A DNA stretch of 64,000 nucleotides from positions 21,890 to 85,889 of the forward strand of contig JAIYCU010000025.1 of the NCBI GenBank assembly GCA_027487835.1, read 5' to 3'. This document shows, in pieces, positions 2,516 to 49,730 of the stretch. A program made the position numbers and the translations under genes. The notes below the pieces were generated by a model, which had not been told where the DNA came from, made no database searches, and was given only the letters and a program-made list of their open reading frames with translations. The stretch's first letter is position 1, and each line of letters starts with the position of its first letter. The DNA is from Bacteroidota bacterium (GTDB taxonomy: Bacteria > Bacteroidota > Bacteroidia > UKL13-3).

Positions 2516-3511
2516 ATGAATCGGGTGAAAAGCTTTCTAACAAGGCTAAAAATATTTCTGTCGTTTACATTGCTTTTTGCTGGGCAAGTGTGGGCGCAGG
2601 ATCCGCAGTTTTCGCAATTTTATGCGAATCCGGTTTACGTAAACCCTGCCTTTGCAGGTAGCTCTAAGGTTGGGCGTTTCGTTCTGAACTCAAGGAGTCA
2701 GTGGCCAAGCATATCAGGTGCTTTTACAACTGGATCTTTAAGTTATGATGAACATTTTAATAATATAAATGGAGGCATCGCACTTCAAGCCATTTATGAT
2801 GAGCAAGGTGTTGGTACTCTAAGAACGGTAAGTGTTAACTTTGCCTACGCATATGAAATTCCAGTTACCCGCAATTTTACCATAAGAGCGGCTATACAAG
2901 CTGGGTTTTTTCAAAAATCTATCGACTTTTCTAAATTATTGTGGTACGACCAAATTGTTAGAACACAAGGATTTATTAATCCAACTAGCGAGCCACCTGG
3001 CGCGCAATCTATATTGAGTCCAAATTTTGCAACAGGTGTAATAGGATATACAAGAAATTTCTATGCTGGCTTTGCCGTTCACAATTTATTTGAGCCTTCC
3101 CAGAAGTTTTATGCAGGCGCTGCCAATCCTGTGCCTAGACGCTTTACAGGAAATATGGGATTAGTAATTCCTGTTATAGAAGATCGTTCATTAAAAAGGT
3201 CTGTTAATTTATACCCTAACGTGGTGGTTATGTCTCAAAGACAATTTAACCAAGTTAATTTAGGGATGTATGGAAGCCGTGGGCCTTATATTTTAGGAGC
3301 TTATTTTAGACAAAACTCAGTAAATGCGGATGCCTTTATTTTAGTTGCAGGGGTAAGAACAGGCAAGGTTAAATTTGGTTATTCCTTCGATGGTACCATT
3401 AGTAGAGCAAGAACTGGCGCTATTAATTCTCATGAAGTTTCTTTAGCTTATGAAATTAAAAAGAGAAATCCGAGGGTTAAAATTAGAAAAGTTACTTGTC
3501 CAGATTTTTAA
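2516..3511 (+). CDS. PorP/SprF family T9SS outer-membrane beta-barrel protein
   Basis: Signal peptide followed by QDPQFSQFYANPVYVNPAFAG, the family N-terminal motif; C-terminal SHEVSLAY...CPDF. Confidence 0.92.
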   Translation: MNRVKSFLTRLKIFLSFTLLFAGQVWAQDPQFSQFYANPVYVNPAFAGSSKVGRFVLNSRSQWPSISGAFTTGSLSYDEHFNNINGGIALQAIYDEQGVGTLRTVSVNFAYAYEIPVTRNFTIRAAIQAGFFQKSIDFSKLLWYDQIVRTQGFINPTSEPPGAQSILSPNFATGVIGYTRNFYAGFAVHNLFEPSQKFYAGAANPVPRRFTGNMGLVIPVIEDRSLKRSVNLYPNVVVMSQRQFNQVNLGMYGSRGPYILGAYFRQNSVNADAFILVAGVRTGKVKFGYSFDGTISRARTGAINSHEVSLAYEIKKRNPRVKIRKVTCPDF

Positions 3512-3597
3512 TTTTCCAAAATTTTATTAAGTTGCAGTTCGATATACTTTATTGAGAAATAATGAGTTTCTTAATTTTAAACTATCGATTTAAAGAT

Positions 3598-4590
3598 ATG
3601 AAAAGAATTATTTTATTCTTTATGTTAGGTTTAATTGGGTTTGCCGATGGGTTTGCGCAAGATCCACAGCTTACGCAATTTTATGCCTCACCGTTGTATA
3701 CTAATCCAGCTATGGCAGGTGCTTCTAGGAAAATTAGGCTAACGCTCAATGCCAGAGACCAATACACTGCTCTAAATAATAATTACAAAACGGGCGTTAT
3801 GGGACTAGATGCCTATTTACCTAAGATAAAAAGTGGCTTTGGAATTGTGTCTATGTATGATGTGGCTGGAGATGGAAATTTAACAACCACCAGTGTTAGC
3901 GCAATTTATTCTTATAATTTAGAAATTAACAGAGAATGGGCATTTAATGCCGCATTGCAAGGAGGAATACTACAAAGAAGGTATGATTTTAGTCGCTTTG
4001 TTTTTAGAGACATGATTGATCCTACCCGTGGGCCAGTGCTACCAACAGCGGAATCAAAAGGTTTGGAGCAAATTGCAGTTCCTAACTTTGCATTCGGTGG
4101 ATTATTATATAGTAGCAGGGTTTTTATTGGAGGTGCAATGCACAATCTTCTTGAGCCCAATATGTCATTTTATTCGCCAGATGCCGATAATGAAGCCTTA
4201 AAATTACCAAGGAAGTATACATTGCATGGTGGCGTTAATATTTATTTGAATAAATCACGGTACGAAGAAAATAGAGTAATCCTTTCACCTAATTTGTTGT
4301 TTATGCAGCAAAGAAACTTTTACCAAATGAACATGGGTTGTTATATCAAGCAAAAATCTTTAACCATTGGTGCTTGGTACCGTCAAACATCCACAAACGG
4401 CGATGCTGCTATCTTTATGATTGGCTTTAAATTGCCTGCAGTTAGAATAGGTTATAGCTATGATGCCATTATATCCTCAGCAAAAACCGCAACTGTTGGC
4501 TCTCATGAAATTTCGCTAGGAATAGAAATTAAACCCAAGAACAAATCTGGGGTTCGATATAATAAAAAGTTAGTTTGTCCTGCGCTGTAA
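3598..4590 (+). CDS. PorP/SprF family T9SS outer-membrane beta-barrel protein, second paralog
   Basis: QDPQLTQFYASPLYTNPAMAG and SHEISLG...CPAL. Start moved from 3562 to the ATG at 3598, which gives a clean signal peptide (MKRIILFF). Confidence 0.92.
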   Translation: MKRIILFFMLGLIGFADGFAQDPQLTQFYASPLYTNPAMAGASRKIRLTLNARDQYTALNNNYKTGVMGLDAYLPKIKSGFGIVSMYDVAGDGNLTTTSVSAIYSYNLEINREWAFNAALQGGILQRRYDFSRFVFRDMIDPTRGPVLPTAESKGLEQIAVPNFAFGGLLYSSRVFIGGAMHNLLEPNMSFYSPDADNEALKLPRKYTLHGGVNIYLNKSRYEENRVILSPNLLFMQQRNFYQMNMGCYIKQKSLTIGAWYRQTSTNGDAAIFMIGFKLPAVRIGYSYDAIISSAKTATVGSHEISLGIEIKPKNKSGVRYNKKLVCPAL

Positions 4591-4672: not shown

Positions 4673-6121
4673 ATGAAAGGTATTTCGAAATTCTTTCTTT
4701 TCGCTACAGCTGCAGCCGGTTTATTAACTGGCACTGCTTGTAACAAGGCCGGTAAATCCAGCACCACAGGGTGGAAGTACAATGACGCCAAGTGGGGTGG
4801 CTTCGAGAAACATAAGTTTAAGGAGCAAGAAACTGGTCCGGGGCTAATCTTTGTTGAAGGTGGTACGTTTACAATGGGTCAGGCTGAACAAGACCTTACC
4901 TACGACCATAACAACATGAAGCGTCGTATTTCTGTTAGTAGTTTTTACATGGACGAAACAGAAGTATCTAACTTTCACTATTTAGAATACTTGCATTGGT
5001 TAATGCGCCAGTATTCTGATAATCCAGTTATTTACACAAAAGCATTACCTGATACACTTGTTTGGAGAGATAAACTTTCCTACAACGAACCTTATGTTTT
5101 GTATTACTTGCGTCACCCTGCCTACAGAGATTATCCAGCGGTAGGTGTAAATTGGGTTCAAGCTGCTGAGTATTGCAAATGGCGTACAGACAGGGTTAAT
5201 GAAATGATCATGGTAAGAGAAGGATTTGTTTCTCTTGACATTCAAAAACAGTCAGGCGAAAATAACTTCAATACAGAAGCCTATTTGTTAGGATTATACA
5301 CGCCATCTATCAAGAAGGAATTACGTGATTATTCCCCAGGTGGTAAGCAACGCCAAGTGCGGATGGAAGATGGAATTTTATTACCTTCTTACCGTCTTCC
5401 AACAGAAGCGGAGTGGGAATATGCCGCTAGCGCTTACAAATCAGCAGGCTTTAATGAGAATGTTGATGTGAAAAGAATTTATCCTTGGAATGGTTTAACC
5501 TTACGCAGATCAGACACTGAAAAAACACGTGGTCGTATGTATGCCAACTATACCCGTGCACGTGGTGACGGAGCAGGTATTGCAGGTAATCTAAATGATG
5601 GTGCTATTTATACTACTTTAGTAAAAGACAAAACCTATTTGCCTAATGATTTTGGTTTATATCATATGGCAGGTAACGTGAGCGAATGGACAAATGACAT
5701 TTACCGTCCTTTGTCATTAGAAGATATGACTGGTTTTAATCCTTATCGTGGTAATGAGTATAAGAAATATAAAACTGATGCAGATGGGTACATCTCTGAA
5801 AAGGATAGCCTTGGCCGTATGATTTATATTGACGTTACTGAAGAGGACAATGCTAAACGCAGGAATTATAAGAAAGCTGATAATATTGGATTCAAGGATG
5901 AACTTCAATACCCAGACATTGAAATGAAGTATGAGTATGGTGTTAGTTCTTTGATTGATAATGCAGCTAGAGTTTATAAGGGTGGTTCATGGGCAGATAA
6001 AGCTTATTGGTTAGTACCTGGAACTCGCCGCTATTTAGATCAAGAGCAAGCAACTGCAACTATTGGTTTCCGTTGTGTAATGGATAGAGTAGGCTCTATG
6101 TCTAAAGGTGGTAAAAAATAA
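4673..6121 (+). CDS. gldJ: Gliding motility lipoprotein GldJ (FGE-sulfatase/SUMF1 fold)
   Basis: Lipobox LTGTAC; STTGWKYN; EQETGPGLIFVEGGTFTMG; YRLPTEAEWEYAA; NDFGLYHMAGNVSEW; TIGFRCV. The location divergent from porU favours GldJ over GldK. Confidence 0.85.
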   Translation: MKGISKFFLFATAAAGLLTGTACNKAGKSSTTGWKYNDAKWGGFEKHKFKEQETGPGLIFVEGGTFTMGQAEQDLTYDHNNMKRRISVSSFYMDETEVSNFHYLEYLHWLMRQYSDNPVIYTKALPDTLVWRDKLSYNEPYVLYYLRHPAYRDYPAVGVNWVQAAEYCKWRTDRVNEMIMVREGFVSLDIQKQSGENNFNTEAYLLGLYTPSIKKELRDYSPGGKQRQVRMEDGILLPSYRLPTEAEWEYAASAYKSAGFNENVDVKRIYPWNGLTLRRSDTEKTRGRMYANYTRARGDGAGIAGNLNDGAIYTTLVKDKTYLPNDFGLYHMAGNVSEWTNDIYRPLSLEDMTGFNPYRGNEYKKYKTDADGYISEKDSLGRMIYIDVTEEDNAKRRNYKKADNIGFKDELQYPDIEMKYEYGVSSLIDNAARVYKGGSWADKAYWLVPGTRRYLDQEQATATIGFRCVMDRVGSMSKGGKK

Positions 6122-6140: not shown

Positions 6141-6176
6141 AAAAAAAGGCTCCCAATTGGGGGCCTTTTTTATTTT
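6141..6176. terminator. Bidirectional rho-independent terminator between gldJ and the convergent T9SS cargo gene
   Basis: AAAAAAAGGCTCCC-AATT-GGGGGCCTTTTTT, a GC stem flanked by A and T runs; overlaps the stop of 6170..8971. Confidence 0.85.
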
Positions 6177-8971
6177 AGTAAGGTGATAGTGCCATGAAAG
6201 TCTTTCCAGTCTTGGGCCATTTTCTTTTTGGTTTTAAGGATATAATAATACACCCCTTCACTCATTTCATTTCCATTTTGGTCTTTACCATTCCAAGCAA
6301 AATCAATGGTATTTGCTGTAAAAATTGTTTGACCCCAACGGTTATAAATGATTATTTCCCCATCCTCACATTGCCCAATTACGCCAGATAATTTAAATAC
6401 ATCATTGTATCCATCAGCATTTGGTGTAAACACATTTGCCTGCTTAAAATTACTCAAAGAATCTGGTAAGTATACTGTCCCTACGGCCGTGTCGGCGCAA
6501 TTTGTTCCGTACTCTGTAATCAAAATTATGGGCAAGTTATAATACTGTGAGACCAATTTCTTTACGGGATTTTCTTCATAACTGCTATCTCCGTCTGGGA
6601 AGCGCCAAAAGAAGTTGGCCGCACCAGGTGTTTCATTGAAAAAGGTAAAAATAGAATTACATGTATCAATGGTATGGCTAAACTTAGTTTTAGAAATTCT
6701 GAAGTCAAACTTTAGGGCCGCATTGCTACAACGCGGACTTACATTTAATGGACCGAAAACATTGGCAGGGGTGGTTTTTAAATCAGAAAATGGGTTGTTT
6801 CCTTGAGGACAACTGGCACACATACTTTGGTAAACCACGCCTCTTTTATCAAATCTGCTTGTACCGCCGTCTACATGGTCGCCTGTATTATCTGGATTAT
6901 CACCGCCTAAAAATGTAGCATATAAAAGGTCGCTTGCCTCTTTATTTAGTAGCATTAGGTAAAAATCGCTTCCATCTGTTTTGGGCTGAAAGGCGTCTGC
7001 GGTAACTTGTAAGCCAATGGTTGATGAATTGCTTCCGTCGATTTTGGTGGCTGTTTTACCACCCCAAGAACTCACGTAAATACGTTTGCAATCATCCACC
7101 AAGAAGGCATTAATGGTAAGGTCAATTTGGTTGCGGCCTGAACCAAATACGGTTGACCATCTTTTGGTTTTTAGGTCTTCTGTAAATGAGGCAATAAATT
7201 GATGTGCATTGGGATTGCTGAATTTGCCCGCACTTACTGGAATGGTTCCTTTACTTTGTCCAACAATGTAAATATTTTTATCAGCATCTTCTTCTAGGGA
7301 GATAATTTGATCGTATTGATCAGTCCCAAAATAGGTTGCTGCAAGTAAACTTTTTCCATCATTAGAAACTTTTGCAATGAGCCCATCACAAGTACCACCT
7401 GAAAAGCTTGGTTGAAAAGAGGTTGGGTCGGTTTTAAAATCAATGCTATTGGTGCCACCACATAATAGAATTTCGTTGGATTGAGTAAAATCAATGCTAT
7501 AGAAAGCATCAGCACCGCTGCCACCCAATAAAGTGCACCAATCTAAACTGCTTAGGTTTGGGTTAAACTTTGCTATTACTCCGTCTTGTTGGCCTTTTAG
7601 CACGTTTTGATAGGCTCCATTGGTGGTTGGAAAGGTATCAGATTGGGTAAAGGAAGTAAGGTATATATTATTGTTAAGGTCGGTTATGATATCCCCTCGA
7701 TAGCTATCTGCAAAGAAGTAATTTGTAATGCCGTTAAAGTTAATGCCATCATTTGCTTTTCCTCCTAAATAGGTAGAAGCAAGTAATTGTCCATTTGCAT
7801 TAAATTTAGCAACAATAATGTCATGTCTACCATTATGGGTGGTATCATATGCTTGTAATGTAGTGGGAAAATTAGAGGAGTATGTATTGCCCAAGACCAA
7901 AAGATTGTTGGCATTATCAATTACAAGGCTATGAGGAATTTCATTATTAGTACCTCCTAGATAAGTTGCATAAAGCAAGCTACTGCCGTCGCTGCTATAT
8001 TTAGAAAGGGTAATATCACACGGAAATTGAGAAAGGCCTATTTCGCCTTCAGAAAAGCCTCCACCTGCAAAGTTTAATTGAAATGCGCCTGAGGTTGTTG
8101 GATATTTTCCATTGGCAATTGTACTTGGGCCAGTGGTAATACCAGCGGCATATAAAGTTCCATTTTCACCATAGGTTGCAGAGCAACCAAAATTATCTGC
8201 AGTGGCGCCAGAGTATGTGAGAAACACAATTTCTGGGTCGATTATAAGCGGATAATTTGGGTTGTATTGATTATTCACTTCAAAACTAAGCTTGTTTTGT
8301 ATAAGTTTAAAATCAACCCTCACAAAGGTTTTAGTACCCTCTATAATTTGCCAAGCAATTGGTTGAGTTTCTTTGATGGTTTCATAATCGGTTTGAATAT
8401 AGAGTTCGCCATTTTGCAGGTAAATGGCTTTTGCGCCATTCACTTTAATTTGCAGTTGATGAATAGGTGCGTGGGGTTCGAGCAAGTATTCGTATTTTAG
8501 TTTGTTCTCGCTCGTATTTAGGCGAAGATGTATGCCGGGATAAAGGTTTTTAAGTTGAACCGATTGTGCAACTGGCACATTTGTTTGCCAATTTTCAGGA
8601 TTTTTTCCAATAAAGTAATTATGGTAATAATTGGCAGGTGTTTCAATTATTGGCAATCCAATTTGTGCATTTTCAAAGCTTAGGTTCAAACCGAAAACTT
8701 TAAGCGTTGAATCCTCTGCTAATTTTGTAGCATGGTGCTTCCTCAGTCTGTTGGTTTGGGCGGGTTCAAAAAAGTAATATTGAATGCCATTTCCTTTTAC
8801 ATGAATTTCATGATAGGCTGCAACTTGTCTAAATAAAATAGCCGAAGGCCATTGTCCTTTGTTTTGAACCCAATGCGATGAAAAATTGGAAGTTTGTGTT
8901 GCACTAGTTTGGGCTTTAAGTACAAGACTTATCAAAACTAGCGAGGCACTTATGAATATTTTTAGGTTCAA
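6170..8971 (-). CDS. Secreted SBBP-repeat (beta-propeller)/PKD protein with T9SS type B CTD (CHU_C)
   Basis: TTG start, signal peptide, WVQNKGQWP N-domain, repeated YATYLGG/STYLGG units, C-terminal NVFTPNADGYND...YNRWG...EGVYYY...GTITLLK. Confidence 0.88.
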   Translation of the reverse strand: MNLKIFISASLVLISLVLKAQTSATQTSNFSSHWVQNKGQWPSAILFRQVAAYHEIHVKGNGIQYYFFEPAQTNRLRKHHATKLAEDSTLKVFGLNLSFENAQIGLPIIETPANYYHNYFIGKNPENWQTNVPVAQSVQLKNLYPGIHLRLNTSENKLKYEYLLEPHAPIHQLQIKVNGAKAIYLQNGELYIQTDYETIKETQPIAWQIIEGTKTFVRVDFKLIQNKLSFEVNNQYNPNYPLIIDPEIVFLTYSGATADNFGCSATYGENGTLYAAGITTGPSTIANGKYPTTSGAFQLNFAGGGFSEGEIGLSQFPCDITLSKYSSDGSSLLYATYLGGTNNEIPHSLVIDNANNLLVLGNTYSSNFPTTLQAYDTTHNGRHDIIVAKFNANGQLLASTYLGGKANDGINFNGITNYFFADSYRGDIITDLNNNIYLTSFTQSDTFPTTNGAYQNVLKGQQDGVIAKFNPNLSSLDWCTLLGGSGADAFYSIDFTQSNEILLCGGTNSIDFKTDPTSFQPSFSGGTCDGLIAKVSNDGKSLLAATYFGTDQYDQIISLEEDADKNIYIVGQSKGTIPVSAGKFSNPNAHQFIASFTEDLKTKRWSTVFGSGRNQIDLTINAFLVDDCKRIYVSSWGGKTATKIDGSNSSTIGLQVTADAFQPKTDGSDFYLMLLNKEASDLLYATFLGGDNPDNTGDHVDGGTSRFDKRGVVYQSMCASCPQGNNPFSDLKTTPANVFGPLNVSPRCSNAALKFDFRISKTKFSHTIDTCNSIFTFFNETPGAANFFWRFPDGDSSYEENPVKKLVSQYYNLPIILITEYGTNCADTAVGTVYLPDSLSNFKQANVFTPNADGYNDVFKLSGVIGQCEDGEIIIYNRWGQTIFTANTIDFAWNGKDQNGNEMSEGVYYYILKTKKKMAQDWKDFHGTITLLK
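8681..8696 (+). repeat. Dispersed motif copy TAGGTTCAAACCGAAA
   Basis: Antisense inside the SBBP gene, read as FGLNL. Confidence 0.85.
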
Positions 8972-8975: not shown

Positions 8976-9114
8976 TATTTTTTTTCTCCACTAAATTAGG
9001 CAATTCGCAGGGGAAAAGGCAATAGGCTTTCTAATTATGTATTATTTAAGAAAAAAAATAGGAGCATTGCAACCATAAGGAAACCTTTTTAATCTAACCT
9101 ATAAGTACGTTAAA

Positions 9115-9660
9115 GTGAGCAAACAACTTGATGAAAAAATTCTACAGGGATGTTTAAAGCGAGAGGTAAAGAGCCAAAAGGCTTTTTACGATCACTTTAG
9201 CAGTGCCATGTATGCTGTTTGTTTAAGGTATAGCAATACCAAAGAGGATGCGAGGGACATTTTACAAGATGGATTTGTAAAGGTTTTTGCAAAATTGGAA
9301 CAATTTACTGGCAAGGGTTCTTTGGAAGGTTGGATGAAAAGGGTTTTTATTAATACGGCTTTAGAGCACTATCGTGTAAATAAAAACCACATGTACCAAA
9401 GTGATGTTGAAGAAGCTTATCAATTAAGCTACGAGGCAGACACTTTGGATAAAATTTCTCAAAAAGAAATTTTTGAAGCGATGCAAAAAATGGCACCAGG
9501 TTACAGATCTATTTTGAATTTGTATGCCATTGAGGGTTATTCACATGCTGAAATTGCAGAAATGTTAGGCATTAGTGAAGGCACTTCAAAGAGTCAGCTT
9601 TCTAGAGCACGTGTTATTTTCATTTTAACTTGGAAGAATTTAAATAAGGAGAAAAATTAA
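9115..9660 (+). CDS. ECF RNA polymerase sigma factor (sigma70, RpoE-like)
   Basis: GTG start; region 2 DARDILQDGFVKVF...GWMKRVFINTALE; region 4 LYAIEGYSHAEIAEMLGISEGTSKSQLSRAR. Confidence 0.95.
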   Translation: MSKQLDEKILQGCLKREVKSQKAFYDHFSSAMYAVCLRYSNTKEDARDILQDGFVKVFAKLEQFTGKGSLEGWMKRVFINTALEHYRVNKNHMYQSDVEEAYQLSYEADTLDKISQKEIFEAMQKMAPGYRSILNLYAIEGYSHAEIAEMLGISEGTSKSQLSRARVIFILTWKNLNKEKN

Positions 9661-9663
9661 ATT

Positions 9664-10569
9664 TTGGAAATAGATAATAACATAGATCAGTTGCTGGCAT
9701 CCAAGATGGATGGTTTTGAGGCCCAGGCACCTGCTGGTGCTTGGGATGCAATTCAAGCCAATTTGCCTGCAGCAGGGCCGGCTTCAATTGGTTCTAGCCT
9801 AGGTTCTGCACCTTTGGTAGCAGCAAAAACGACAAGTATTTTAGCTAAACTTGGATTGCTTGTTGGTTCTGCTGTGCTTGTTTCTACTTTTATTTATTTT
9901 GTAAATTCTAATCCAGAGGTTATTCAGTCAACGCCAAAATTTGAAATAAAAGCCTCAGAAAAAGAGCTTGGTTTGACCCAAACTGATAAATCAACAATTA
10001 ATGCTGTTGAAGCATCAGAACTTAAAACTCCAGCAAAGGCTAAAGGCTTTTCGGTCCCTAATGCTGCGCCTGTTGACGAAAATGCACGATCTAAAGAAAC
10101 TCCAATTCGAGAAGAGAAGCCGCAAGAATTAGTGCCAGCCTCGCCTTCGTTACCTGAGACAGTTTCACAAAAGGAGCCTGTAAAACCAAGTGAGGATAGA
10201 AAGGAAACCGCGATAGAAAACGACGAGGAAGACAAACAAACAGATTTGAATGAGCCTGCATTAAATAATCCAATTTCAATTGAGAAACGTCAGCCTAAAT
10301 TTCACAATGCCTTTTCGCCCGATGGAGATGGAAAGAATGATACTTGGTTTGTAGAATTAGAAGATGTATCTGATTATCATTTAGGAATTTATAATATTAA
10401 AGGGCAATTAGTTTTTGAATCAAGTAAATTGAGTGAGCATTGGAATGGTAATAATGATAGGAACGGTGAGACATGTGAATCTGGGAATTATGCATTTATT
10501 ATAAATTATAAATATAAAAATGAAACAAAAATGAATACAAGTCAGGGCATCATTGCACTATTTCGATAA
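9664..10569 (+). CDS. Putative anti-sigma factor: cytoplasmic N-domain, one TM helix, disordered linker, T9SS type B CTD
   Basis: TTG start 3 nt after the sigma gene. IDQLLASKMDGFEAQAPAGAWDAI resembles Bacteroidota anti-sigma N-termini; hydrophobic helix at aa ~59-81; P/E/K-rich aa 82-210; FHNAFSPDGDGKNDTW...GIIALFR is CHU_C-like. Confidence 0.75.
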   Translation: MEIDNNIDQLLASKMDGFEAQAPAGAWDAIQANLPAAGPASIGSSLGSAPLVAAKTTSILAKLGLLVGSAVLVSTFIYFVNSNPEVIQSTPKFEIKASEKELGLTQTDKSTINAVEASELKTPAKAKGFSVPNAAPVDENARSKETPIREEKPQELVPASPSLPETVSQKEPVKPSEDRKETAIENDEEDKQTDLNEPALNNPISIEKRQPKFHNAFSPDGDGKNDTWFVELEDVSDYHLGIYNIKGQLVFESSKLSEHWNGNNDRNGETCESGNYAFIINYKYKNETKMNTSQGIIALFR

Positions 10570-10641
10570 TTTGAAATCTCAAAAAAAATCAATAGATTGG
10601 CAGACAATTTTAGAAAATAACAACAATTTAAACTATATAAT

Positions 10642-13600
10642 ATGAATCGATTATTTACCAGATTAGCCTTTTGGGTGATTGCAGTACTGATGTCTGCAAG
10701 CTCATTTGCGCAGTCGCTTTCCTTGGATGTGGGGCCAAACATAATATGTTTTGGCAAGCCATTGCAAGTAAGGGCTGTGCTTGCGGGGGTAAGTCCTGCA
10801 GATGTTACCGCATACCGTTTTGATTGGGGTAATGGAGACTCTACGGTTAACTTTCTTGGAAATCCAGTTGTAAATTTTGCTACCAAGCAATATCCAGCAG
10901 CAGGTATTTATCAAGTAACAGTAACAGCTAGGTTTTCTAACCGTGGACCTTTAACTGCAAGTTATTGGGATACTGTTTACAATCTACCAACCGCAGCATT
11001 TTCACTAACAAGTCAAGATTCGCAGTGTTATACTGGGAACGTTTATTGTTTTAAAGAGGCTGCCTTGCAGGGTCCAGCGCCTAGCTTACCATTAACAACG
11101 CGTAATTTAACCTACGGTGATGGTAACAATGACCAGTTAGCAGTTGGAGAAAATAAATGTCATAATTTTGGAAAAGGTGGTGTGCCTTTTAACGTAGGTT
11201 ATTCTGTATCTGACATTGGAGGCTGCGCCTCACAAGCATTTCGGGCTGTTTATGTTGGAAACGATTTAAGACCAAGGTTTGCAGTAAGTGGAACTCCTCG
11301 TTGCGATACAACACCTTATATTTTCATCAATCAAACGCCAACCTCCCCTTCAAGTTTACAGTGGTTTAAATGGGATTTTGATGATGGTACATCTTATAAT
11401 TCTTCTGATCCAATAGTGCCAGCTGATTTAGTATGGTGGAATAACTTTACACATAGCTACACCCTTAATGGCGTTTTTAATCCTAGATTAACTATAAAAG
11501 GTAAGTTATTAAATTGTACTGAATCATTCCAGTACAGTTTGTCTGGCAATCAGTTACCAGAAAACATCATTATTCGTTACGACCTACGCTCGCGCAGAAG
11601 TCCAATGAATGATACCATTTCTGATAGTGTGTGTATTGCAAACCTTATGCAAGGTGGTGTATGTTTATATAACATGTATCCATTGCAAGGGGTAAATACA
11701 CCTATACAGATTTTATGGGATTTTGCTGATCCAAATGCTAATCCACCAGGATCTGATAAATTCTTGAACCAAGCTGCACCTTGTTATAAATATTTAGCAC
11801 AAGGCCATTTCTTCCCTAAATTATACGTGCAATGCCCTGGTAAGCCGGTTAAGCGACTCGATTTCTGGTCAAGAATAAGCCTTCCAGATGATTCCGATAC
11901 CTTATATGTTGCCCCACCTATACCAAATCCTCGATTATATACTATAAATGGTTACTTGTTCTTCCCGAATGACACCATTACTAAATTTAGATGGATACCT
12001 GGAAAGGATGGAACCTCTAGAGATAGTATCACCGCTTATTGGAAGTATTTTACAAATGATACCTTAGATAGATACACACTTAAAAAACGTGGTGATTTTG
12101 TTGGTTTTGGTGTAAATGTTCTTGGGCCAACGGTTGCAATTGAAAATCCTATTATACCCATTGTGGTTAAGCAAAATTTGAAGGTACAATGTGCTCCTTC
12201 TTTCCCGGTTGAATTTGTAAATGCAAGTAGCATTTATCAAAGTCATAATCTTTATATCCGTTGGGAATTTGGAGATGATTATGCGCCAAGATGTACCTCT
12301 TTCTCGGTGCCTGATCCAAGTAAGCCAAACGGTGGAATGCAGCCGTATACTACTGCCATTGATTTGGCCAATAGAACTTTGCCAAGATTTATTACAGGTA
12401 CAGTTATTTACCCAGGTGGCGTAAACTGTAATTTCTCACATGATACTCTACCTATCCATAAATATGAACGTTGGAGCAGAATTTACCAGTGGCATAGATA
12501 TGGACACGATTACCCACCATTTGATTCTTCAGGAACAGGTTGGACAAAAGATCCAGCGCAGGCTGCACCAAATGGTAAGAAGTTAGTAGCACCTATTGAT
12601 TTAGCCGATTGGGGTAAGCCAATGTTCTCTTCTGGCCCAACACCTTCTCGTATAGATACTTTGGATATGTATCCACAGGATATGCAACCCAACCGTCCTA
12701 TTACTGTTCGAAATGGGGTAATACCAGATCCAATTGCAAACTACTATGGATATTGGGAACTTACTTTGCCTGTAGGTACTACTGCAGATACTAGTAGCTT
12801 CTTAAAACAAAGTCCAGGTGGTCCAAACTTGACCCTGCCAAATATGCCAAATGGTGTTTCTAGAAGATACCGCGGAAATACAATAATTCCTGGTACCAAT
12901 GGTATGACACTATATGAGTACATCTTTAATAGGGTAGTACAAAGATGTCCTACTGTTACTTTGTTAATGAAAGATAGTTTTAATAATCAATCAGCAGATA
13001 AATACAGAAACTTTGAAGATATTATTGCTACAAATGCTTCATCAGGAAACCAATTTGATTTGACTTTAGTAGTTAAGCAATCGATGGATTTGTCTCCAAA
13101 ACCAACTTTGATTTTAGATTCGGATACCTTTAGGTTCAAAACTGGTGCTCCAAATAATAATATGGTTTTTAAATTGGATACTGCATCTGCAAAAAGAGAT
13201 ACCCTTAAAGGATACACTTATGGCGGTTATGTGGTTCGTGATACCATAATAATTAGCCCAGCTCGTAGAGATTCCTTCTTTACCTTTGTTTATAATTACT
13301 ATACCTACGAATTAAGACGTAATCCATTAACTGGCCAGTGGACGGCTAAATTGCCATCAGATCATTTTTATGTAGATGCCTTTGATTGCGGTGGAACCTC
13401 TACTTTACAATTGCCATTGGTTGGGGTAGACGCGTTTGGTTTGGGTAAAACAGGTAGGGTTTGTCCAGATTTATTAAGTGGCCAATCAGGCGGTAGAATT
13501 CGTTTTGAATTTGGAAGAGTAGATACGATTCCTGGTACTTACCCAGATTGTGGAGGAAGAACTTTCTTACTATTTAACTATGACTCCCTTGCAGATAGAA

Positions 13601-16600
13601 GAGATTTAACACCATGTGATTTGGATGGTTTTGTGCAGTTTGATGGAACGCACCCTTCTACTGGAGCGGTAACGCCAGGTGGAAATGTTTGGCCAGGCTT
13701 TAATAATGGCGTTAACTTTAACCCATTAACTGCTTGGACAGGCCCAGGTGGAACATCTAGCATCACCCATTATTTGCCAGCAGGTCCTTGGCCATATACC
13801 AATAGCCCTGTAGATCCTAGAGGTTTTGTGACCGTAGGTTTAATAATGGGGTCTGGTTGTAATAACCCAGGTTGTGGTGGCCCTGATCCAAACTGTATTT
13901 CGGATACAGTATGGTACCACAAATTTTTACACTTAATTACCTTAAACGCAACGTTTACCTTCCGCAAGGTGGGTGGTTATATTGATTATGGTGTGCCAAG
14001 CAGGTTGCCTAGTCAAGATTATACCTATGACTCAGCACAATTTTATCCTGCAAGTGTAGGTGGTGCTATCCCTAACGGCAACTGGCGTGAGCCTTGGAAC
14101 CGTTTGTATGGAAAAGGTGATATTGTTGAGTTCGAGACTTACGTAAAAACGCAAGATTTTGTGCTAGCAGACATTTGGGATTGGGGCGATGGTACAGTAA
14201 CTATCGACTCATTCTATACAAATAGACAAGATACCTTTGTAAAACTAGATCCTGTAAATTTCCCTAACGATAGCGTATTCTTTGAAAAGTATACGTATCC
14301 GCTAAATAGATTGAGGTTCTTTGTTTCAACTGAAAGTATTCCATTCACTGTATTAAATGTTTCAACACCTTTCCCATTAGGCGTTAGAGTTTACAGAGGA
14401 ATTCAAAGAGATACTATTTGGAGATGTGATGACCCAACTAAGGCGATGCCACCTCAAAGTATTAAGGTTACAAACGTGCTCATTGATACAGCTTTCCATT
14501 TGTTGCCACTTACGCACCAGTATTTTAAGTCGTCTTATGAAATGACTGCGGGCCCAGGTACAACCATTAAGAGGGGTGCTATTACCCCAGTAGAGCATAT
14601 TTTAGTTACTACTACACAATGTTTAAATTCAAAAGTTAGACAAATTGTAATTGGTACGGTTGACACCTTTACAGTATTTGAAGATGGCGTAATTTCAGAT
14701 GGTATTTTATGTGTGAACCAAGAGGTAACCTTTGAAGATTCTATTCGTTACTGGTTCCCTAAACCGTATGGTACTAATAATGTGTTTGGTCCTAGCCGCC
14801 CGTTAGACATCCCAGATTATACTTTCCCTGGTGGTGAGGTAGAAATTTATAATGATAACCATGGCAGAGCAATGAATGGCTATCCAAATGATTCAATTAA
14901 AACATTTGTAAATTATTCTAAGTATTATGTTACTACCGCTGCAACTTGTCCTTTTGGATGGGTTCAACAAGCAGGAGTTGTAAATAATACTTGTTATAAA
15001 ATTGATACATCATTTTTTGAAAGAATTTATTGGGATTATGAATCTGATGGTGTGATAGATTATGCAGGTGCATTTAATGCAAGACATAAATATAAAGCAC
15101 CTGGTAAATTCAAAGTTTCCATGATTACTAGAGATACAGTTGGTTATTATGATACCTGTTTTACCTTCTTAAATGTGGTTGAACCAATTGCAAAGTTCTC
15201 TAGTGCAGGTTTATTCAATTGCGATGTTCCAGTTCAATTCTTTGATTCATCAAAAATTGTAGATGGTTGTATCGCAGAAACTGGTTTCCCTTGCGATCAG
15301 GTTGACTATAGAAGATGGTGGTTTGGAGATGCAGGATTTGATTCATTGGCTTGGAGGTCTGAAGCGCCAAATCCTACGTATGCGTATAAGAAAAATGGAT
15401 GGTATACCATTATGCAAGTATTAAAAACAACGCAAGGTTGTTATGATACTGCTAGAAAAGATATCTACCTACGTGGACCGCGTCCAAGAATTAAGTTATT
15501 AGGAGATACATTGGGTTGTGTGCCGTATAAGTTGAAAATAGTTTCTTATCCAAATGACTCAGGCGTATTCAGTGTTACACCTGCAACCTTTATTAGGCCA
15601 GGTAGACCAGATGGAGCTTATGAAACTATTTTGTTAAAGAATCCTGATACGGTTGAAGTGGTTTATGATTATGAAGGTGTTTATGAATTAACTGCTGTTG
15701 GTTATGATACCTATCCGATTACAAATGCACTTTGTCCACCAGTGGTTGTGCCAGATACAGCTGGAGGTGAGCAGAAGATTAGAATCTATGTGAAGAATCC
15801 ATATAAGGTTGAAATTGCAAGTTCTAAGAATATTGTCTGTGTTGGTGAGCCTTTTAATATCACAAATAGGTCGTCAATAGATACCATTACCAAGTTTAGA
15901 ATGTATTCTTATAATTCTGATTATACTTCGATTTTAGACACTGTATTTAAGACTAATTTCTTCCAAGATTCGGTATTTAAATATGCTTTCTTCTCAGCTG
16001 GTGTTTATAATTTAGTTATGCAATCAACTAGCTTTATTGAAAATACACCTAAATGTACGAGTCGAGATACTGTAACTATAAGGGCTATGAAGGCAAAAGC
16101 TGCCCTAGAAACCGATAGCTTAGGTATGCCGAAGTATTTTGTAAGAAATCTATCAGACAGCGCAAATGCATCTTCTTACATCTGGCGTGTTTATAATCCT
16201 GATGGAACACTCAGATTACAAGTAGATGTGCCAAGTAATAGTGATCCTAAATTCAACTTAGGTGAGTTAGACTTTAAAAATGACATCGGTGTGTTTAGGG
16301 TTTGTGTTTGGGCAATAACTGCTGGATTGGATTACTGTATTGATAGTGCTTGTAAAGATGTAATCAATAATTTCCAAGTAAGTGTTAAGGTGCCAAATGT
16401 GTTTACGCCTAATAATGATGGTAAGAACGACGTGTTCAATATCCAAATTAGTGGTGAAGAAATGTATGACCTTAAGATTTGGAATCGTTGGGGTGGACTT
16501 GTATTTGAAAGCTTAGATTCGAAAGTAATGTGGAATGGACGTACCCAAAATGTGGGTGAAGAAAATCCAGAAGGTACTTATTACTTTGTGTTTAAATATC

Positions 16601-16659
16601 AACTACGTGGTCAGGCCGAAGAATTTGTTAGAGGTTCAATAACCTTACTCAGAGAATAA
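10642..16659 (+). CDS. 2005-aa secreted multi-PKD, Cys-rich surface protein with T9SS type B CTD
   Basis: Signal peptide; repeated WDFDDG/WDWGDG/WWFGD PKD motifs; C-terminal VPNVFTPNNDGKND...WNRWGG...EGTYYF...GSITLLRE. Confidence 0.88.
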   Translation: MNRLFTRLAFWVIAVLMSASSFAQSLSLDVGPNIICFGKPLQVRAVLAGVSPADVTAYRFDWGNGDSTVNFLGNPVVNFATKQYPAAGIYQVTVTARFSNRGPLTASYWDTVYNLPTAAFSLTSQDSQCYTGNVYCFKEAALQGPAPSLPLTTRNLTYGDGNNDQLAVGENKCHNFGKGGVPFNVGYSVSDIGGCASQAFRAVYVGNDLRPRFAVSGTPRCDTTPYIFINQTPTSPSSLQWFKWDFDDGTSYNSSDPIVPADLVWWNNFTHSYTLNGVFNPRLTIKGKLLNCTESFQYSLSGNQLPENIIIRYDLRSRRSPMNDTISDSVCIANLMQGGVCLYNMYPLQGVNTPIQILWDFADPNANPPGSDKFLNQAAPCYKYLAQGHFFPKLYVQCPGKPVKRLDFWSRISLPDDSDTLYVAPPIPNPRLYTINGYLFFPNDTITKFRWIPGKDGTSRDSITAYWKYFTNDTLDRYTLKKRGDFVGFGVNVLGPTVAIENPIIPIVVKQNLKVQCAPSFPVEFVNASSIYQSHNLYIRWEFGDDYAPRCTSFSVPDPSKPNGGMQPYTTAIDLANRTLPRFITGTVIYPGGVNCNFSHDTLPIHKYERWSRIYQWHRYGHDYPPFDSSGTGWTKDPAQAAPNGKKLVAPIDLADWGKPMFSSGPTPSRIDTLDMYPQDMQPNRPITVRNGVIPDPIANYYGYWELTLPVGTTADTSSFLKQSPGGPNLTLPNMPNGVSRRYRGNTIIPGTNGMTLYEYIFNRVVQRCPTVTLLMKDSFNNQSADKYRNFEDIIATNASSGNQFDLTLVVKQSMDLSPKPTLILDSDTFRFKTGAPNNNMVFKLDTASAKRDTLKGYTYGGYVVRDTIIISPARRDSFFTFVYNYYTYELRRNPLTGQWTAKLPSDHFYVDAFDCGGTSTLQLPLVGVDAFGLGKTGRVCPDLLSGQSGGRIRFEFGRVDTIPGTYPDCGGRTFLLFNYDSLADRRDLTPCDLDGFVQFDGTHPSTGAVTPGGNVWPGFNNGVNFNPLTAWTGPGGTSSITHYLPAGPWPYTNSPVDPRGFVTVGLIMGSGCNNPGCGGPDPNCISDTVWYHKFLHLITLNATFTFRKVGGYIDYGVPSRLPSQDYTYDSAQFYPASVGGAIPNGNWREPWNRLYGKGDIVEFETYVKTQDFVLADIWDWGDGTVTIDSFYTNRQDTFVKLDPVNFPNDSVFFEKYTYPLNRLRFFVSTESIPFTVLNVSTPFPLGVRVYRGIQRDTIWRCDDPTKAMPPQSIKVTNVLIDTAFHLLPLTHQYFKSSYEMTAGPGTTIKRGAITPVEHILVTTTQCLNSKVRQIVIGTVDTFTVFEDGVISDGILCVNQEVTFEDSIRYWFPKPYGTNNVFGPSRPLDIPDYTFPGGEVEIYNDNHGRAMNGYPNDSIKTFVNYSKYYVTTAATCPFGWVQQAGVVNNTCYKIDTSFFERIYWDYESDGVIDYAGAFNARHKYKAPGKFKVSMITRDTVGYYDTCFTFLNVVEPIAKFSSAGLFNCDVPVQFFDSSKIVDGCIAETGFPCDQVDYRRWWFGDAGFDSLAWRSEAPNPTYAYKKNGWYTIMQVLKTTQGCYDTARKDIYLRGPRPRIKLLGDTLGCVPYKLKIVSYPNDSGVFSVTPATFIRPGRPDGAYETILLKNPDTVEVVYDYEGVYELTAVGYDTYPITNALCPPVVVPDTAGGEQKIRIYVKNPYKVEIASSKNIVCVGEPFNITNRSSIDTITKFRMYSYNSDYTSILDTVFKTNFFQDSVFKYAFFSAGVYNLVMQSTSFIENTPKCTSRDTVTIRAMKAKAALETDSLGMPKYFVRNLSDSANASSYIWRVYNPDGTLRLQVDVPSNSDPKFNLGELDFKNDIGVFRVCVWAITAGLDYCIDSACKDVINNFQVSVKVPNVFTPNNDGKNDVFNIQISGEEMYDLKIWNRWGGLVFESLDSKVMWNGRTQNVGEENPEGTYYFVFKYQLRGQAEEFVRGSITLLRE

Positions 16660-16724: not shown

Positions 16725-17189
16725 ATGAAACATTCCTTTTTGGTTCAAACCGTAGTTTTATTATTCTTTACTTTGGCTTTAAGTTGCCAAAGCAATAAGA
16801 TATATACGGCTAATACTATTCCAGCAGAATGCTTGGAATTTGGCACAGATGACACAAATACGGGTCTTAAGGTCTCATGGATTTTTTTGGAAAATGGACA
16901 AGTATTTTACAGAACCAATTTATTTACGGTATCGCAAAAGTCATTGTCTAGATCTGCCGTTAAAAAGTTGTTTGTAGAGGCCAATCGCATCAAGCGATCC
17001 GGTTTTAAGTTTAGGGCTGAAGGTGCTTATCGGGCTTTTATTACTTTTAAAGAGGCAAGTCACCAGAATGAATCTACTTGGATTTGGCCTTATGGCGGTA
17101 CCAAGGATTATCCTGATGAGCTTAAGAAGTTATATAAGCTTTGTGAAGAGGCTGCCCAATTGAGCAAGGAAGAAATTAAGACAGATTAA
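16725..17189 (+). CDS. Hypothetical lipoprotein
   Basis: Hydrophobic N-terminus with lipobox LALSC; no recognised domain. Confidence 0.7.
   Translation: MKHSFLVQTVVLLFFTLALSCQSNKIYTANTIPAECLEFGTDDTNTGLKVSWIFLENGQVFYRTNLFTVSQKSLSRSAVKKLFVEANRIKRSGFKFRAEGAYRAFITFKEASHQNESTWIWPYGGTKDYPDELKKLYKLCEEAAQLSKEEIKTD
16740..16752 (+). repeat. Dispersed motif copy TTGGTTCAAACCG
   Basis: In a lipoprotein signal peptide, read as LVQTV. Confidence 0.85.
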
Positions 17190-18049
17190 GAAGCGTATCT
17201 TCTTTTGATGATTCGCTCCAAGTCTATCACTAATTCATTTTGATTTGTCCAGCCGTTTTGGTGCTTTAGATCACTAAATATTCTGAGGGCATCGTTTAAG
17301 TCAATTGCTTGGTTCAGCCTATCTATTGATTTTGCATACTCAAACACATTTTTATTGAAGAGTTCGTTAACAAAAGCAATTTTCTTGTTTAAGTTAATGG
17401 CGTTTTTGATGTTATCAATAGGCGCTTCAAGCGTTTTTTCTACAATTGGATTATGTGATTCTTTGCTGTTTTTATCGTTGTAGGTAGCTTCTCTTTCTTT
17501 AAAGCTTTCATTCAATGGAACAATGGGTTTTTCTAAAATCTCTGGCAATACTGTTTTTTGAATCCTTTTATTCTCTACCGCCTTTTCAATATTTACCTCT
17601 ATTGGTTGCTCATGCTTAGTGGTTGTAGAAGGGTATTCTATGGGGACAATAGCCTGCGCACTTTCTAATATTCTTGAAGGAATTTCTACAATACTTGGAA
17701 TGGGTTCTTCCTCAATTTTTGTTACAATTTCATCTAATGTAATATCTAGTGAAGTTTCTTTTAGAATTGTTTTAAAATCTTGGGCGATGTGCGATATTGG
17801 TTCCTCAACAACAGGCACTTCTGCTATAGGTTCTTCATTTTTAGGAACTTGACCCGCAATAAAATTTAAGTTTTCCTGCTCTTCGGTTCTTAATTTTAGG
17901 ATCAACTCAAATAAATCGGTGCATTGCTTTTTAAGTAATTCTTTCTCTAGCAAAGTAAAAGATGTACCATTTAATAAAATTTGTTTGATATTGCTATTGA
18001 GGTCCTCTGATTTTACCTTTAATTTGCTAACGAGTTGCAGTGAATTCAT
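17186..18049 (-). CDS. Conserved hypothetical cytoplasmic protein (helical N- and C-domains, acidic linker)
   Basis: 287-aa ORF. C-terminal INLNKKIAFVNELFNKN resembles an uncharacterised Bacteroidota family from memory; the E/P-rich middle looks disordered. Confidence 0.7.
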   Translation of the reverse strand: MNSLQLVSKLKVKSEDLNSNIKQILLNGTSFTLLEKELLKKQCTDLFELILKLRTEEQENLNFIAGQVPKNEEPIAEVPVVEEPISHIAQDFKTILKETSLDITLDEIVTKIEEEPIPSIVEIPSRILESAQAIVPIEYPSTTTKHEQPIEVNIEKAVENKRIQKTVLPEILEKPIVPLNESFKEREATYNDKNSKESHNPIVEKTLEAPIDNIKNAINLNKKIAFVNELFNKNVFEYAKSIDRLNQAIDLNDALRIFSDLKHQNGWTNQNELVIDLERIIKRRYAS

Positions 18050-22051: not shown

Positions 22052-22053
22052 TC

Positions 22054-22797
22054 TTACATTACCATGCCGCCACAAACATTGATGGTTTGTCCGCTAATGT
22101 ATGAAGAGGCATCACTTGCTAAAAATAATACACAATTGGCAACATCTTCAGGTTTTCCACCTCTTTTAAGTGGAATGCCTTTTATCCATTCTGCTTTTAC
22201 TTCTTCAGCTAGGGTATCAGTCATTTCAGTTTCTATGAAACCTGGCGCAATGGCATTGCAACGGATATTTCTTGAACCCAATTCTTTGGCAACACTTTTA
22301 GTTAGACCAATCATACCGGCTTTGGAGGCGGCATAATTAGCTTGGCCAGCATTACCTGTTATTCCAACCACAGAGGTTATATTAATGATTGAGCCACTTT
22401 TGGCCTTCATCATGGGTTTCATAGCGGCCTTAGTCATGGCAAATGCTGATTTTAAATTGGTATCAAGCACGTCATCCCATTGCTGTTCGCTCATTCGCAT
22501 CAATAAGGTATCCTTTGTAATACCGGCATTATTTACCAACACATCTAAAGCCCCAAAATCTTTTAGAATTTCATCTACAACTTTATCCGCTTCTGCAAAT
22601 TCTGCTGCATTACTTTGATATCCTTTTGCTTTAACGCCCATGGCTTGCAGCTCTGCTTCAAATGTCATTGCTTTTTCAACAGAGCTCACATACGTAAACG
22701 CAATATTTGCGCCTGCTTTTGCTAGGGTATGGGCTATTCCTTTGCCAATTCCGCGAGAAGCGCCCGTAACAAGCGCTGTTTTTCCTTGTAAATTCAT
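22054..22797 (-). CDS. fabG: 3-oxoacyl-ACP reductase
   Basis: TGASRGIG, VNNAGITKD, GNAGQANYAASKAG, NAIAPGFIET. Start moved to MNLQGK at 22797. Confidence 0.95.
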   Translation of the reverse strand: MNLQGKTALVTGASRGIGKGIAHTLAKAGANIAFTYVSSVEKAMTFEAELQAMGVKAKGYQSNAAEFAEADKVVDEILKDFGALDVLVNNAGITKDTLLMRMSEQQWDDVLDTNLKSAFAMTKAAMKPMMKAKSGSIINITSVVGITGNAGQANYAASKAGMIGLTKSVAKELGSRNIRCNAIAPGFIETEMTDTLAEEVKAEWIKGIPLKRGGKPEDVANCVLFLASDASSYISGQTINVCGGMVM

Positions 22798-49676: not shown

Positions 49677-49730
49677 GTGCTAGGTTTTAGTAAAGATAAA
49701 ACAAATAATTTATTTTATTGTTTTATCGAA

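Follow-up and report, generated by a model that had tools for sequence, protein, structure and literature searches.

A type B secretion signal on a membrane tether beside an ECF sigma factor: a putative anti-sigma family of uncultured Bacteroidota

Closest described systems

Some regulators are secreted by the very machine whose late substrates they control, FlgM with its sigma-28 and the secreted type III secretion system (T3SS) regulators BtrA and ExsE among them. [quoted passage not shown] It lies in 64,000 nucleotides (nt) of DNA from a Bacteroidota bacterium (GenBank assembly GCA_027487835.1, contig JAIYCU010000025.1), a stretch we call the window. There the gene for an extracytoplasmic function (ECF) sigma factor is followed by a gene for a protein of 301 amino acids (aa), here called the partner, which carries a short N-terminal module (N-module), a single transmembrane (TM) helix, a long disordered tether and, at its very end, a C-terminal domain (CTD) of type B, a kind found on T9SS cargo. 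The best explanation of the whole, to which we give somewhat better than even chances, is that the partner is an anti-sigma factor whose periplasmic sensor would be this tethered secretion signal.

With FlgM and sigma-28 the partner shares the proposed logic: an anti-sigma factor that carries a secretion signal, and transcription that is licensed by secretion competence. FlgM, however, is soluble, is fully exported through the one-step T3SS and has no homology to the partner. The latter appears to be anchored in the inner membrane and the T9SS acts only across the outer membrane; release would need pulling, proteolysis or both. In the RsgI/SigI systems of Clostridia and Bacillus, the sensor is a module of the type found in the regulated proteins (carbohydrate-binding modules, CBMs), and both disorder and force-dependent release have been proposed for them. 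The likeness here is the use of a cargo-type module as sensor, CBMs in RsgI and putatively a type B CTD in the partner. RsgI differs in that its N-terminus is a defined anti-sigma domain and that a juxtamembrane domain cleaves itself; the partner has neither, its AlphaFold2 model being disordered from TM helix to CTD. On the cytoplasmic side, the class II anti-sigma domains of CnrY and NepR hold an ECF sigma factor with a two-helix element of about 30 residues, followed in CnrY by a single TM helix. The N-module resembles them in size and secondary structure only, no sequence similarity having been detected. It is a different object from the class I anti-sigma domain (ASDI; zf-HC2/RskA), which is a helical bundle of about 80 to 90 aa; the N-module consists of two short helices in 35 aa.

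FecR of the FecR/FecI–FecA system, together with the FecR-like partners of ECF240/241 in Bacteroidota (PMC7826278, PMC11637429), is alike in geometry: a single-pass anti-sigma factor with periplasmic reach to an outer-membrane protein, an autoregulated ECF sigma factor, and proteolysis. In those systems the outer-membrane protein is a TonB-dependent transducer, whereas the partner would presumably meet the T9SS, by way of a disordered tether and a secretion signal. A Pfam scan of the partner, in which FecR, DUF4880 and DUF4974 domains were sought, matched none of them. Type B cargo such as SprB and Fjoh_3952, which travels with PorP/SprF shuttles (PMC9143113, PMC12618676), ends in a domain of the same family, by hidden Markov model (HMM), as the last 90 residues of the partner, in which nearly all of its motifs are kept. 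Unlike such cargo, the partner lacks a cleavable Sec signal peptide, a functional passenger and a conserved adjacent PorP/SprF gene, and its CTD belongs to a distinct clade.

The nearest precedent is the PorA–PorY/PorX–SigP pathway of Porphyromonas gingivalis (PMC7712824, PMC12152298), in which a T9SS CTD likewise serves as a periplasmic signal, its end point being an ECF sigma factor with T9SS-related genes under its control. PorA's CTD binds to PorY, acting upstream of SigP; it needs no working T9SS to signal, and retaining PorA on the inner membrane does not stop it (PMC12152298). PorA differs in being free cargo with a signal peptide and a type A CTD, acting through a histidine kinase and two-component system (PorY/PorX) with no anti-sigma factor. 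In the window, a tether joins a type B CTD to the membrane partner of the sigma factor, the local output would be an operon for type B cargo and not components of the T9SS, and beyond the CTD fold there is no sequence relationship between the two proteins. Full-text literature searches turned up no anti-sigma factor described as having a T9SS CTD, in keeping with an initial annotation of this DNA, made from the letters alone, which knew of no account of such a circuit; the PorA CTD (PMC12152298) is a close conceptual precedent. The main text of the ECF reclassification paper makes no mention of CHU_C or of T9SS-linked partners. What seems to be new here, then, is the make-up of a putative ECF sigma/anti-sigma pair: its sigma-side module is new, and a secretion signal would act as the sensor.

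The sigma factor and its partner

The gene pair and the predicted parts of the partner are as follows.

9115..9660, + strand: 181-aa ECF sigma factor (group 4, sigma-70 family) with a GTG start; Sigma70_r2 3e-12, Sigma70_r4_2 5.4e-17, TIGR02937 1.3e-25
9664..10569, + strand: partner gene, 301 aa, TTG start, 3 nt after the sigma stop; an open reading frame (ORF) whose homologues start at the same residue
9664..9768, + strand: N-module, aa 1-35, predicted cytoplasmic, putative sigma-binding (anti-sigma) element; motif NIDxLLKxxFxxFxPxAPxxxWxxIxxxL, two short helices
9769..9837, + strand: low-complexity A/G/S/P spacer, aa 36-58; variable sequence, predicted local confidence (pLDDT) <50
9838..9906, + strand: single TM helix or signal anchor, aa 59-81; Kyte–Doolittle 2.1, AlphaFold2 helix aa 60-80
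9907..10296, + strand: disordered E/P/K/S-rich tether, predicted periplasmic, aa 82-211, 130 aa; E20, P15, K14 and S12 of 130 residues
10297..10569, + strand: type B T9SS CTD, aa 212-301, plus the stop codon; PF13585, TIGR04131

The sigma factor scores 90 bits against TIGR02937 (cut-off 42.9 bits) and has sigma-2 and sigma-4 domains only, in about 180 aa. Its gene and that of the partner share a reading frame, TAA ATT alone preceding the TTG start (window 9658-9666); at other loci the two genes overlap by 4 to 14 nt, in different frames. Taken together, the frames and overlaps suggest translational coupling rather than a read-through fusion.

We modeled the 301-aa partner with AlphaFold2 on a 68-sequence family alignment. 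In the model, the N-module forms two helices (aa 7-15 and 26-33, pLDDT about 84). Across the 68 members D8 and P23 never vary, and at least 90% keep W27. The segment at aa 59-81 is the only hydrophobic one in the protein; it is rich in small residues, with a near-invariant lysine (K62) at its cytoplasmic edge. From aa 81 to 210 the model has no secondary structure (pLDDT 50-55). The initial annotation had described much of this: an ECF sigma gene directly before a 301-aa protein with a TM segment at aa 59-81, a P/E/K/S-rich disordered linker of about 130 aa and a complete type B CTD at aa ~212-301, every element of which was recovered at 9115-9660 and 9664-10569. Its anti-sigma-like N-terminus is a reading from context. 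There is indeed a conserved two-helix module, but searches against Pfam and PDB sequences returned noise only, with no family or chain matched, and because of this the term anti-sigma rests on position, topology and co-divergence rather than on homology. None of 80 N-termini matched a Pfam anti-sigma family, and there is no Cys/His motif of the HxxxCxxC type. A homologue search with the N-terminal 88 aa gave no match, and one with an N-terminal profile gave a single 118-aa fragment.

The partner is far from alone. A HMMER search over 1.84 billion cluster representatives (50% identity) returned 7201 matches, mostly to the CTD alone; among the best 150, more than 100 were proteins of 285 to 330 aa that aligned from query residue 4-6 to the end. 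When the retrieved proteins were screened for motif, TM helix and CTD, at least 141 of 166 carried the N-module motif, hydrophobic segment, linker and CHU_C domain from end to end. Long forms, with extra sequence between TM helix and CTD, number 23, and in those examined the extra sequence includes a PKD domain before the CTD. Four such members (371-488 aa, with PKD inserted between tether and CTD) were placed on their contigs:

L093, 8001-9317
L095, 1655-3121
L102, 700-1827
L103, 365-1480

Public records name family members only as 'gliding motility-associated C-terminal domain-containing protein', and all the named ones come from uncultured Bacteroidota; the genome-contig scan and the database records yielded no member from a cultured organism. 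By these searches, the partner is one of a large, conserved and undescribed Bacteroidota family.

We compared the genomic context of the window with that of the 14 other distinct members for which upstream DNA could be read, whose proteins are 26 to 68% identical to that of the window. In 15 of 15, the gene directly before that of the partner, in the same orientation, encodes an orthologous ECF sigma factor. From -14 to +18 nt separate the two genes, overlap with the start codon being frequent, and the sigma factors are 40 to 72% identical to that of the window. The arrangement to which the initial annotation had drawn attention in a single locus turned out to hold throughout this set. A control set came from a genome-contig scan keyed on the CTD motif, which produced 79 generic type B cargo loci and one true family member. 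Not one of the 79 had an ECF sigma gene within about 4 kb of the CTD, and the N-module too occurred in none of them. In 800 kb of retrieved DNA, sigma and N-module matches coincide one to one, and a metagenome scan with a narrow N-terminal alignment gave 6 loci, all with the same cassette. Similarity in the N-module tracks similarity in the sigma factor with a Spearman coefficient of 0.63, the value for the CTD being 0.19; the 45 locus pairs are not independent, so we treat this co-divergence as supportive at most. The cassette contains no other anti-sigma candidate. By these counts, the sigma–partner arrangement is far beyond chance, and we regard the partner as very probably the cognate membrane regulator of the adjacent sigma factor.

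Topology and tether

Which way does the partner sit in the membrane? The hydrophobic segment of all 152 homologues begins between aa 44 and 70, in no case among the first 25 aa, and it is about 21 to 23 residues long; these 152 sequences have no conserved AxA (small-x-small) cleavage motif after the helix. On average, the 15 residues before it contain 1.7 K+R and 0.14 D+E and the 15 residues after it 1.4 K+R and 1.8 D+E, a charge difference of +1.9 in favor of a cytoplasmic N-terminus. Under the usual topology rules, the most economical reading makes the partner a signal anchor of N-in orientation whose linker and CTD lie in the periplasm. The initial annotation had seen no cleavable signal peptide, and the homologues agree. 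We also considered an alternative start at L51, which would make the hydrophobic segment an N-terminal signal peptide. It was ruled out since conservation extends over the first 35 residues and homologues begin at the annotated start.

These observations bear most directly on one rival explanation, that the partner is an ordinary secreted T9SS substrate with a long N-terminal extension before its signal peptide, regulated by the sigma factor without being its anti-sigma factor. There is something to be said for it. Extended signal peptides with conserved N-terminal extensions exist among autotransporters, the partner has a bona fide type B CTD and an N-terminus that matches no known anti-sigma family, and the NCBI name given to members speaks only of a gliding motility-associated CTD. 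Such a substrate sits poorly, however, with a hydrophobic segment that begins 44 to 70 residues in (152 of 152), runs for some 21 to 23 residues and has no conserved AxA behind it. Its 'passenger' would be nothing but a non-conserved disordered linker. It would also occupy the classic anti-sigma position, at the sigma stop, in 15 of 15 loci that offer no other anti-sigma candidate, and its N-terminus would have diverged in step with a sigma factor. True cargo is at hand for comparison, and both neighboring cargo proteins begin with classical N-terminal signal peptides. We consider ordinary secretion very improbable.

Between TM helix and CTD, length is kept and sequence is not. Among 118 short-form members with less than 50% mutual identity, the distance has a median of 133.5 aa (interquartile range 130-139, range 116-163), and despite this the tether sequence is essentially unconserved. 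That is the pattern a spacer with a defined reach would show. The initial annotation had thought the tether able to serve a periplasm-spanning sensor, and a conserved length, half of the members falling within 130 to 139 aa, is what such a sensor needs. General polymer estimates put the contour length of 133 residues near 50 nm and the distance between their ends, when relaxed, at roughly 8 nm, from which it follows that the linker would reach the outer membrane only if substantially extended. One position stands out in the otherwise unconserved linker, a proline at aa 166 (~10159-10161), about 45 residues before the CTD, kept in at least 90% of the aligned sequences. The linker might be processed there, or the proline might be an alignment artifact of a Pro-rich region.

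A second rival takes the linker as the site of action. Here some other cue cleaves it, and the T9SS then secretes the linker–CTD fragment, either to clear the periplasm or as a small surface product, the CTD being no sensor at all. RseA and RsiW, both single-pass anti-sigma factors, are cut at site-1 in their periplasmic part; the T9SS needs a free periplasmic substrate, as cleavage would make; and the CTD is canonical. The difficulty lies in the short forms, which in the AlphaFold2 model have no other folded sensor domain, only disordered linker, so that the cue would have to be read by a non-conserved disordered sequence. Disposal also leaves the held linker length unexplained, and the CTD is the best-conserved part of the partner. 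We think it improbable.

The C-terminal domain

Residues 213-298 match CHU_C (PF13585) with E=2e-18 and 66.7 bits (cut-off 27) over profile positions 3-85 of 86, and residues 212-289 match TIGR04131 with 40.8 bits (cut-off 35). AlphaFold2 models aa 212-301 as an Ig-like beta-sandwich with pLDDT 92-98, for which Foldseek finds the CTDs of T9SS substrates 8glk_D (TM-score 0.67, target-normalized), 5m11 and 8gl8_D, albeit with weak E-values of 3e-3 to 5e-3. In Flavobacterium johnsoniae, five conserved type B motifs (A-E) are each required for secretion or shuttle recognition, and type B cargo relies on PorP/SprF-family shuttles (PMC12618676). When the consensus of 136 sigma-linked CTDs was set against that of 74 cargo CTDs, the sigma-linked domains proved to keep PNxF(S/T)PNGDGxND, G.lVFes, WxG, GxYxY and GxIxLxR. 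They have lost the RW of the cargo NRWG block, and have gained a frequent Cys and a YQ motif. An HMM built from cargo only gives them a median of 75 bits, compared with 95 for held-out cargo.

We placed the sigma-linked CTDs in a neighbor-joining tree with the CTDs of their neighbors and 40 random cargo CTDs. They form a single clade with one long-branch intruder, and the CTDs of the giant and DUF7948 proteins (described below) cluster separately. A single distinct clade implies that the fusion of the CTD is old and has been inherited vertically; recent domain shuffling from the neighboring cargo was rejected for this reason. By profile and fold, the CTD is a bona fide, canonical type B domain, and by the tree one distinct from the CTDs of cargo.

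Distinctness of this sort brings in the main rival. It keeps the anti-sigma factor and makes the CTD a mere periplasmic binding or sensor domain, whose own partner, in the periplasm or at the inner membrane, might be its cargo, a chaperone, a protease or another regulator, with no contact with the T9SS and no readout of it. PorA is the model, since its CTD, a ligand of PorY, remains able to signal in mutants of sov, porL, porV and porU and when tethered to the inner membrane (PMC12152298). The divergence of the sigma-linked CTDs (RW lost, Cys and YQ gained, a score about 20 bits lower on the cargo HMM) fits such a role, as does the want of a PorP/SprF gene among the conserved neighbors. And yet a binding partner at the inner membrane needs no tether of about 133 residues held within a narrow range of length. 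Nearly all the motifs needed for type B secretion (PMC12618676) are kept in the CTD, and the subfamily to which the window belongs is co-conserved with type B cargo on both sides. On balance, we judge this rival unlikely, if still the one to reckon with. That the CTD couples sigma activity to the T9SS is, in our estimate, an even call or marginally better.

Promoter and putative output

Three further features bear on what the sigma factor may control.

9063..9102, + strand: conserved ECF (sigma-E-like) promoter motif; -35-like TTGCAACC at 9067-9074, -10-like (A)ATCTAA at 9091-9097
10642..16659, + strand: giant cargo with PKD and type B CTD, 2005 aa, classical signal peptide, 72 nt downstream of the partner; PKD 4e-12, CHU_C 2.3e-20
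6170..8971, - strand: divergent cargo with DUF7948, SBBP and type B CTD, 933 aa; DUF7948 9.6e-56, CHU_C 5.8e-21

The promoter motif of the window reads TTGCAACC-N17-CATCTAA (9067-9097), with GCAAC and TCT exactly 19 nt apart. The general form, aTTGCAACc-N17-caTCT(A/G)A, stands about 46 nt before the true sigma start with identical spacing in 8 of 8 loci, the proteins of which are 26 to 72% identical; locus L102 has a variant, GCAAC-N19-TCATA. Scanning with a position weight matrix (PWM) built from these sites gave one strong match per locus and, in the 64-kb window, this one only (34 bits; the next best has 13). A loose version of the pattern matches twice in the window against 0.66 expected. 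Before the DUF7948, giant and PorP/GldJ genes of the window there is no convincing further sigma-dependent promoter. A loose-pattern site that faces the divergent gene in locus L088 was discarded, the PWM giving it no support. The position of the conserved sigma-E-like motif, upstream of the sigma gene itself, indicates autoregulation.

By BLASTP, homologues of the giant cargo lie directly downstream of a family member in 8 other loci, with gaps of 18 to 89 nt, and in the window there is no terminator-like site on the + strand between partner and giant gene. The giant cargo is a probable co-transcribed output of the sigma factor. The stop codon of the partner gene lies in TAATTTG (window 10567-10575), which matches the Bacteroidetes housekeeping -7 element TAnnTTTG, and the same is seen at 4958-4966 of L088. 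The giant gene could thus have an internal promoter here, but with only 2 of 8 loci the match is possibly chance.

On the other side, orthologues of the DUF7948 cargo (38-57% identity) are divergent from the sigma gene in L085, L086, L088 and L090, and DUF7948-like matches occupy the same position in L005, L099 and L101. The gene is absent beside sigma in L093, which makes it a frequent, not a universal, member of the cassette. In L099, a 269-aa ORF with a signal peptide (717-1526, - strand) lies directly downstream of the DUF7948-type cargo gene, and could encode a PorP/SprF-like shuttle.

The three more divergent members, in L102, L103 and L104 (345 aa in the last), all keep the sigma gene and lack the giant one, a PKD domain being detected in two of them. 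The invariant core is accordingly sigma plus partner, and in these loci the pair appears to be re-used with other regulons.

How a tethered signal might report

The core idea, a tethered CTD that reports to a sigma factor, is plausible, and its steps can be spelled out. The 35-residue, two-helix N-module would hold the sigma factor in the cytoplasm, with the TM helix as anchor and a tether of about 133 residues presenting the CTD in the periplasm. There the machinery that handles type B cargo, namely a shuttle of the PorP/SprF family together with the SprA translocon, would recognize the CTD. Its engagement or pulling would then destabilize the anti-sigma factor through a site-1 cleavage in the linker followed by intramembrane proteolysis, for which the small-residue-rich TM helix would suit a site-2 protease, and the sigma factor would be freed. 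Free sigma would transcribe its own operon from TTGCAACC-N17-CATCTAA, making more sigma, more anti-sigma and, in the subfamily of the window, the 2005-aa cargo. As new cargo is made, its CTDs would vie for the T9SS with the decoy on the anti-sigma factor, and this would close a feedback loop. Such competition would match expression of the giant cargo to free secretion capacity, in the manner of the FlgM checkpoint. In a more specific version, the GldLM/PorLM motor, driven by the proton-motive force, pulls on the CTD; mechanical extraction or a force-exposed cleavage frees the sigma factor, and cargo CTDs again compete with the decoy. Secretion would then power a checkpoint that spans two membranes, and transcription of a giant adhesin would follow the free capacity for secretion. 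We offer this version tentatively, and think it doubtful as it stands. Sigma binding, engagement of the CTD by the T9SS, proteolytic release and the sign of regulation are all steps that we infer.

Several points weigh against a tethered sensor of secretion. The N-module is much shorter than a class I anti-sigma domain, and no anti-sigma family was matched. We know of no T9SS substrate with an inner-membrane anchor. The CTD in known T9SS complexes is finally held by its shuttle at the outer membrane, and a tethered CTD might bind only non-productively. With the RW of the NRWG block lost, recognition by the T9SS could be altered or lost altogether. The giant cargo is missing in L102, L103 and L104, so cargo competition cannot be general. 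Every member of the family comes from metagenome-assembled genomes of uncultured bacteria. Finally, PorA signals without a working T9SS (PMC12152298), which means that a CTD can signal without reporting secretion.

The family has a wider bearing. The definition of a T9SS substrate as cleavable signal peptide plus CTD is broken by proteins in which a canonical CTD hangs on a predicted inner-membrane tether and whose constant companion is an ECF sigma factor, and the family points to a built-in link between secretion and transcription. To our knowledge, the matching of huge adhesin-like cargo synthesis to T9SS capacity has only one worked example, PorA–PorXY–SigP, in one species. Sigma, partner and one conserved promoter would together make a compact handle on how type B CTDs are recognized in the periplasm. 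The family would also allow a test of the force that the T9SS exerts on its substrates, and could serve as a reporter of T9SS activity. The N-module is a new short, putatively sigma-binding module. Annotation stands to be corrected as well, given that members go only by the name 'gliding motility-associated C-terminal domain-containing protein'.

Neighboring genes and other features of the window

Upstream of the cassette, and further along the window, lie more genes of the T9SS and its cargo.

2516-3511 and 3562-4590: tandem PorP/SprF paralogs, 331 and 342 aa, 5-7 kb upstream
4673-6121: GldJ-like lipoprotein, 482 aa, which also resembles GldK/PorK
30755-39835, 41951-43336, 45941-48118, 49677-52703 and 57541-61323: T9SS cargo, four type A and one type B

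The two PorP paralogs noted near the locus by the initial annotation are indeed there, at 2516-3511 and 3562-4590, with the GldJ-like gene (4673-6121) beside them. The GldJ-like protein falls below both GldJ equivalog cut-offs (414.8 against 458.2 and 363.2 against 382.9). The link then drawn from these genes, to gliding and to the two adjacent PorP paralogs, did not survive comparison. No PorP/SprF gene lies near the cassette in L086, L090, L093 or L102, and other loci have LytB/DUF2452 or FtsZ/peptidase genes where the window has PorP/SprF and GldJ. Since PorP/SprF and GldJ are not conserved beside the cassette, nothing ties it specifically to gliding or to the two PorP paralogs nearby. For type B cargo in general, genetic linkage to a cognate PorP/SprF-like shuttle is common but not a requirement. 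The conserved companion in the window's subfamily is the downstream giant type B cargo, often together with the divergent DUF7948 cargo.

Four ORFs of the window have no Pfam match at E<=0.001: 16725-17189, 17186-18049 (- strand), 19967-22075 (- strand) and 29870-30739, encoding 154, 287, 702 and 289 aa, respectively. The first two directly follow the giant cargo gene. Elsewhere in the window, four proteins end in type A tails (Por_Secre_tail): a 3026-aa BNR_assoc_N protein, one M43 peptidase, one S8 subtilase and one protein of 1008 aa. There is also another type B protein, of 1260 aa, with four PKD domains. With T9SS cargo this dense, the organism clearly relies on the T9SS.

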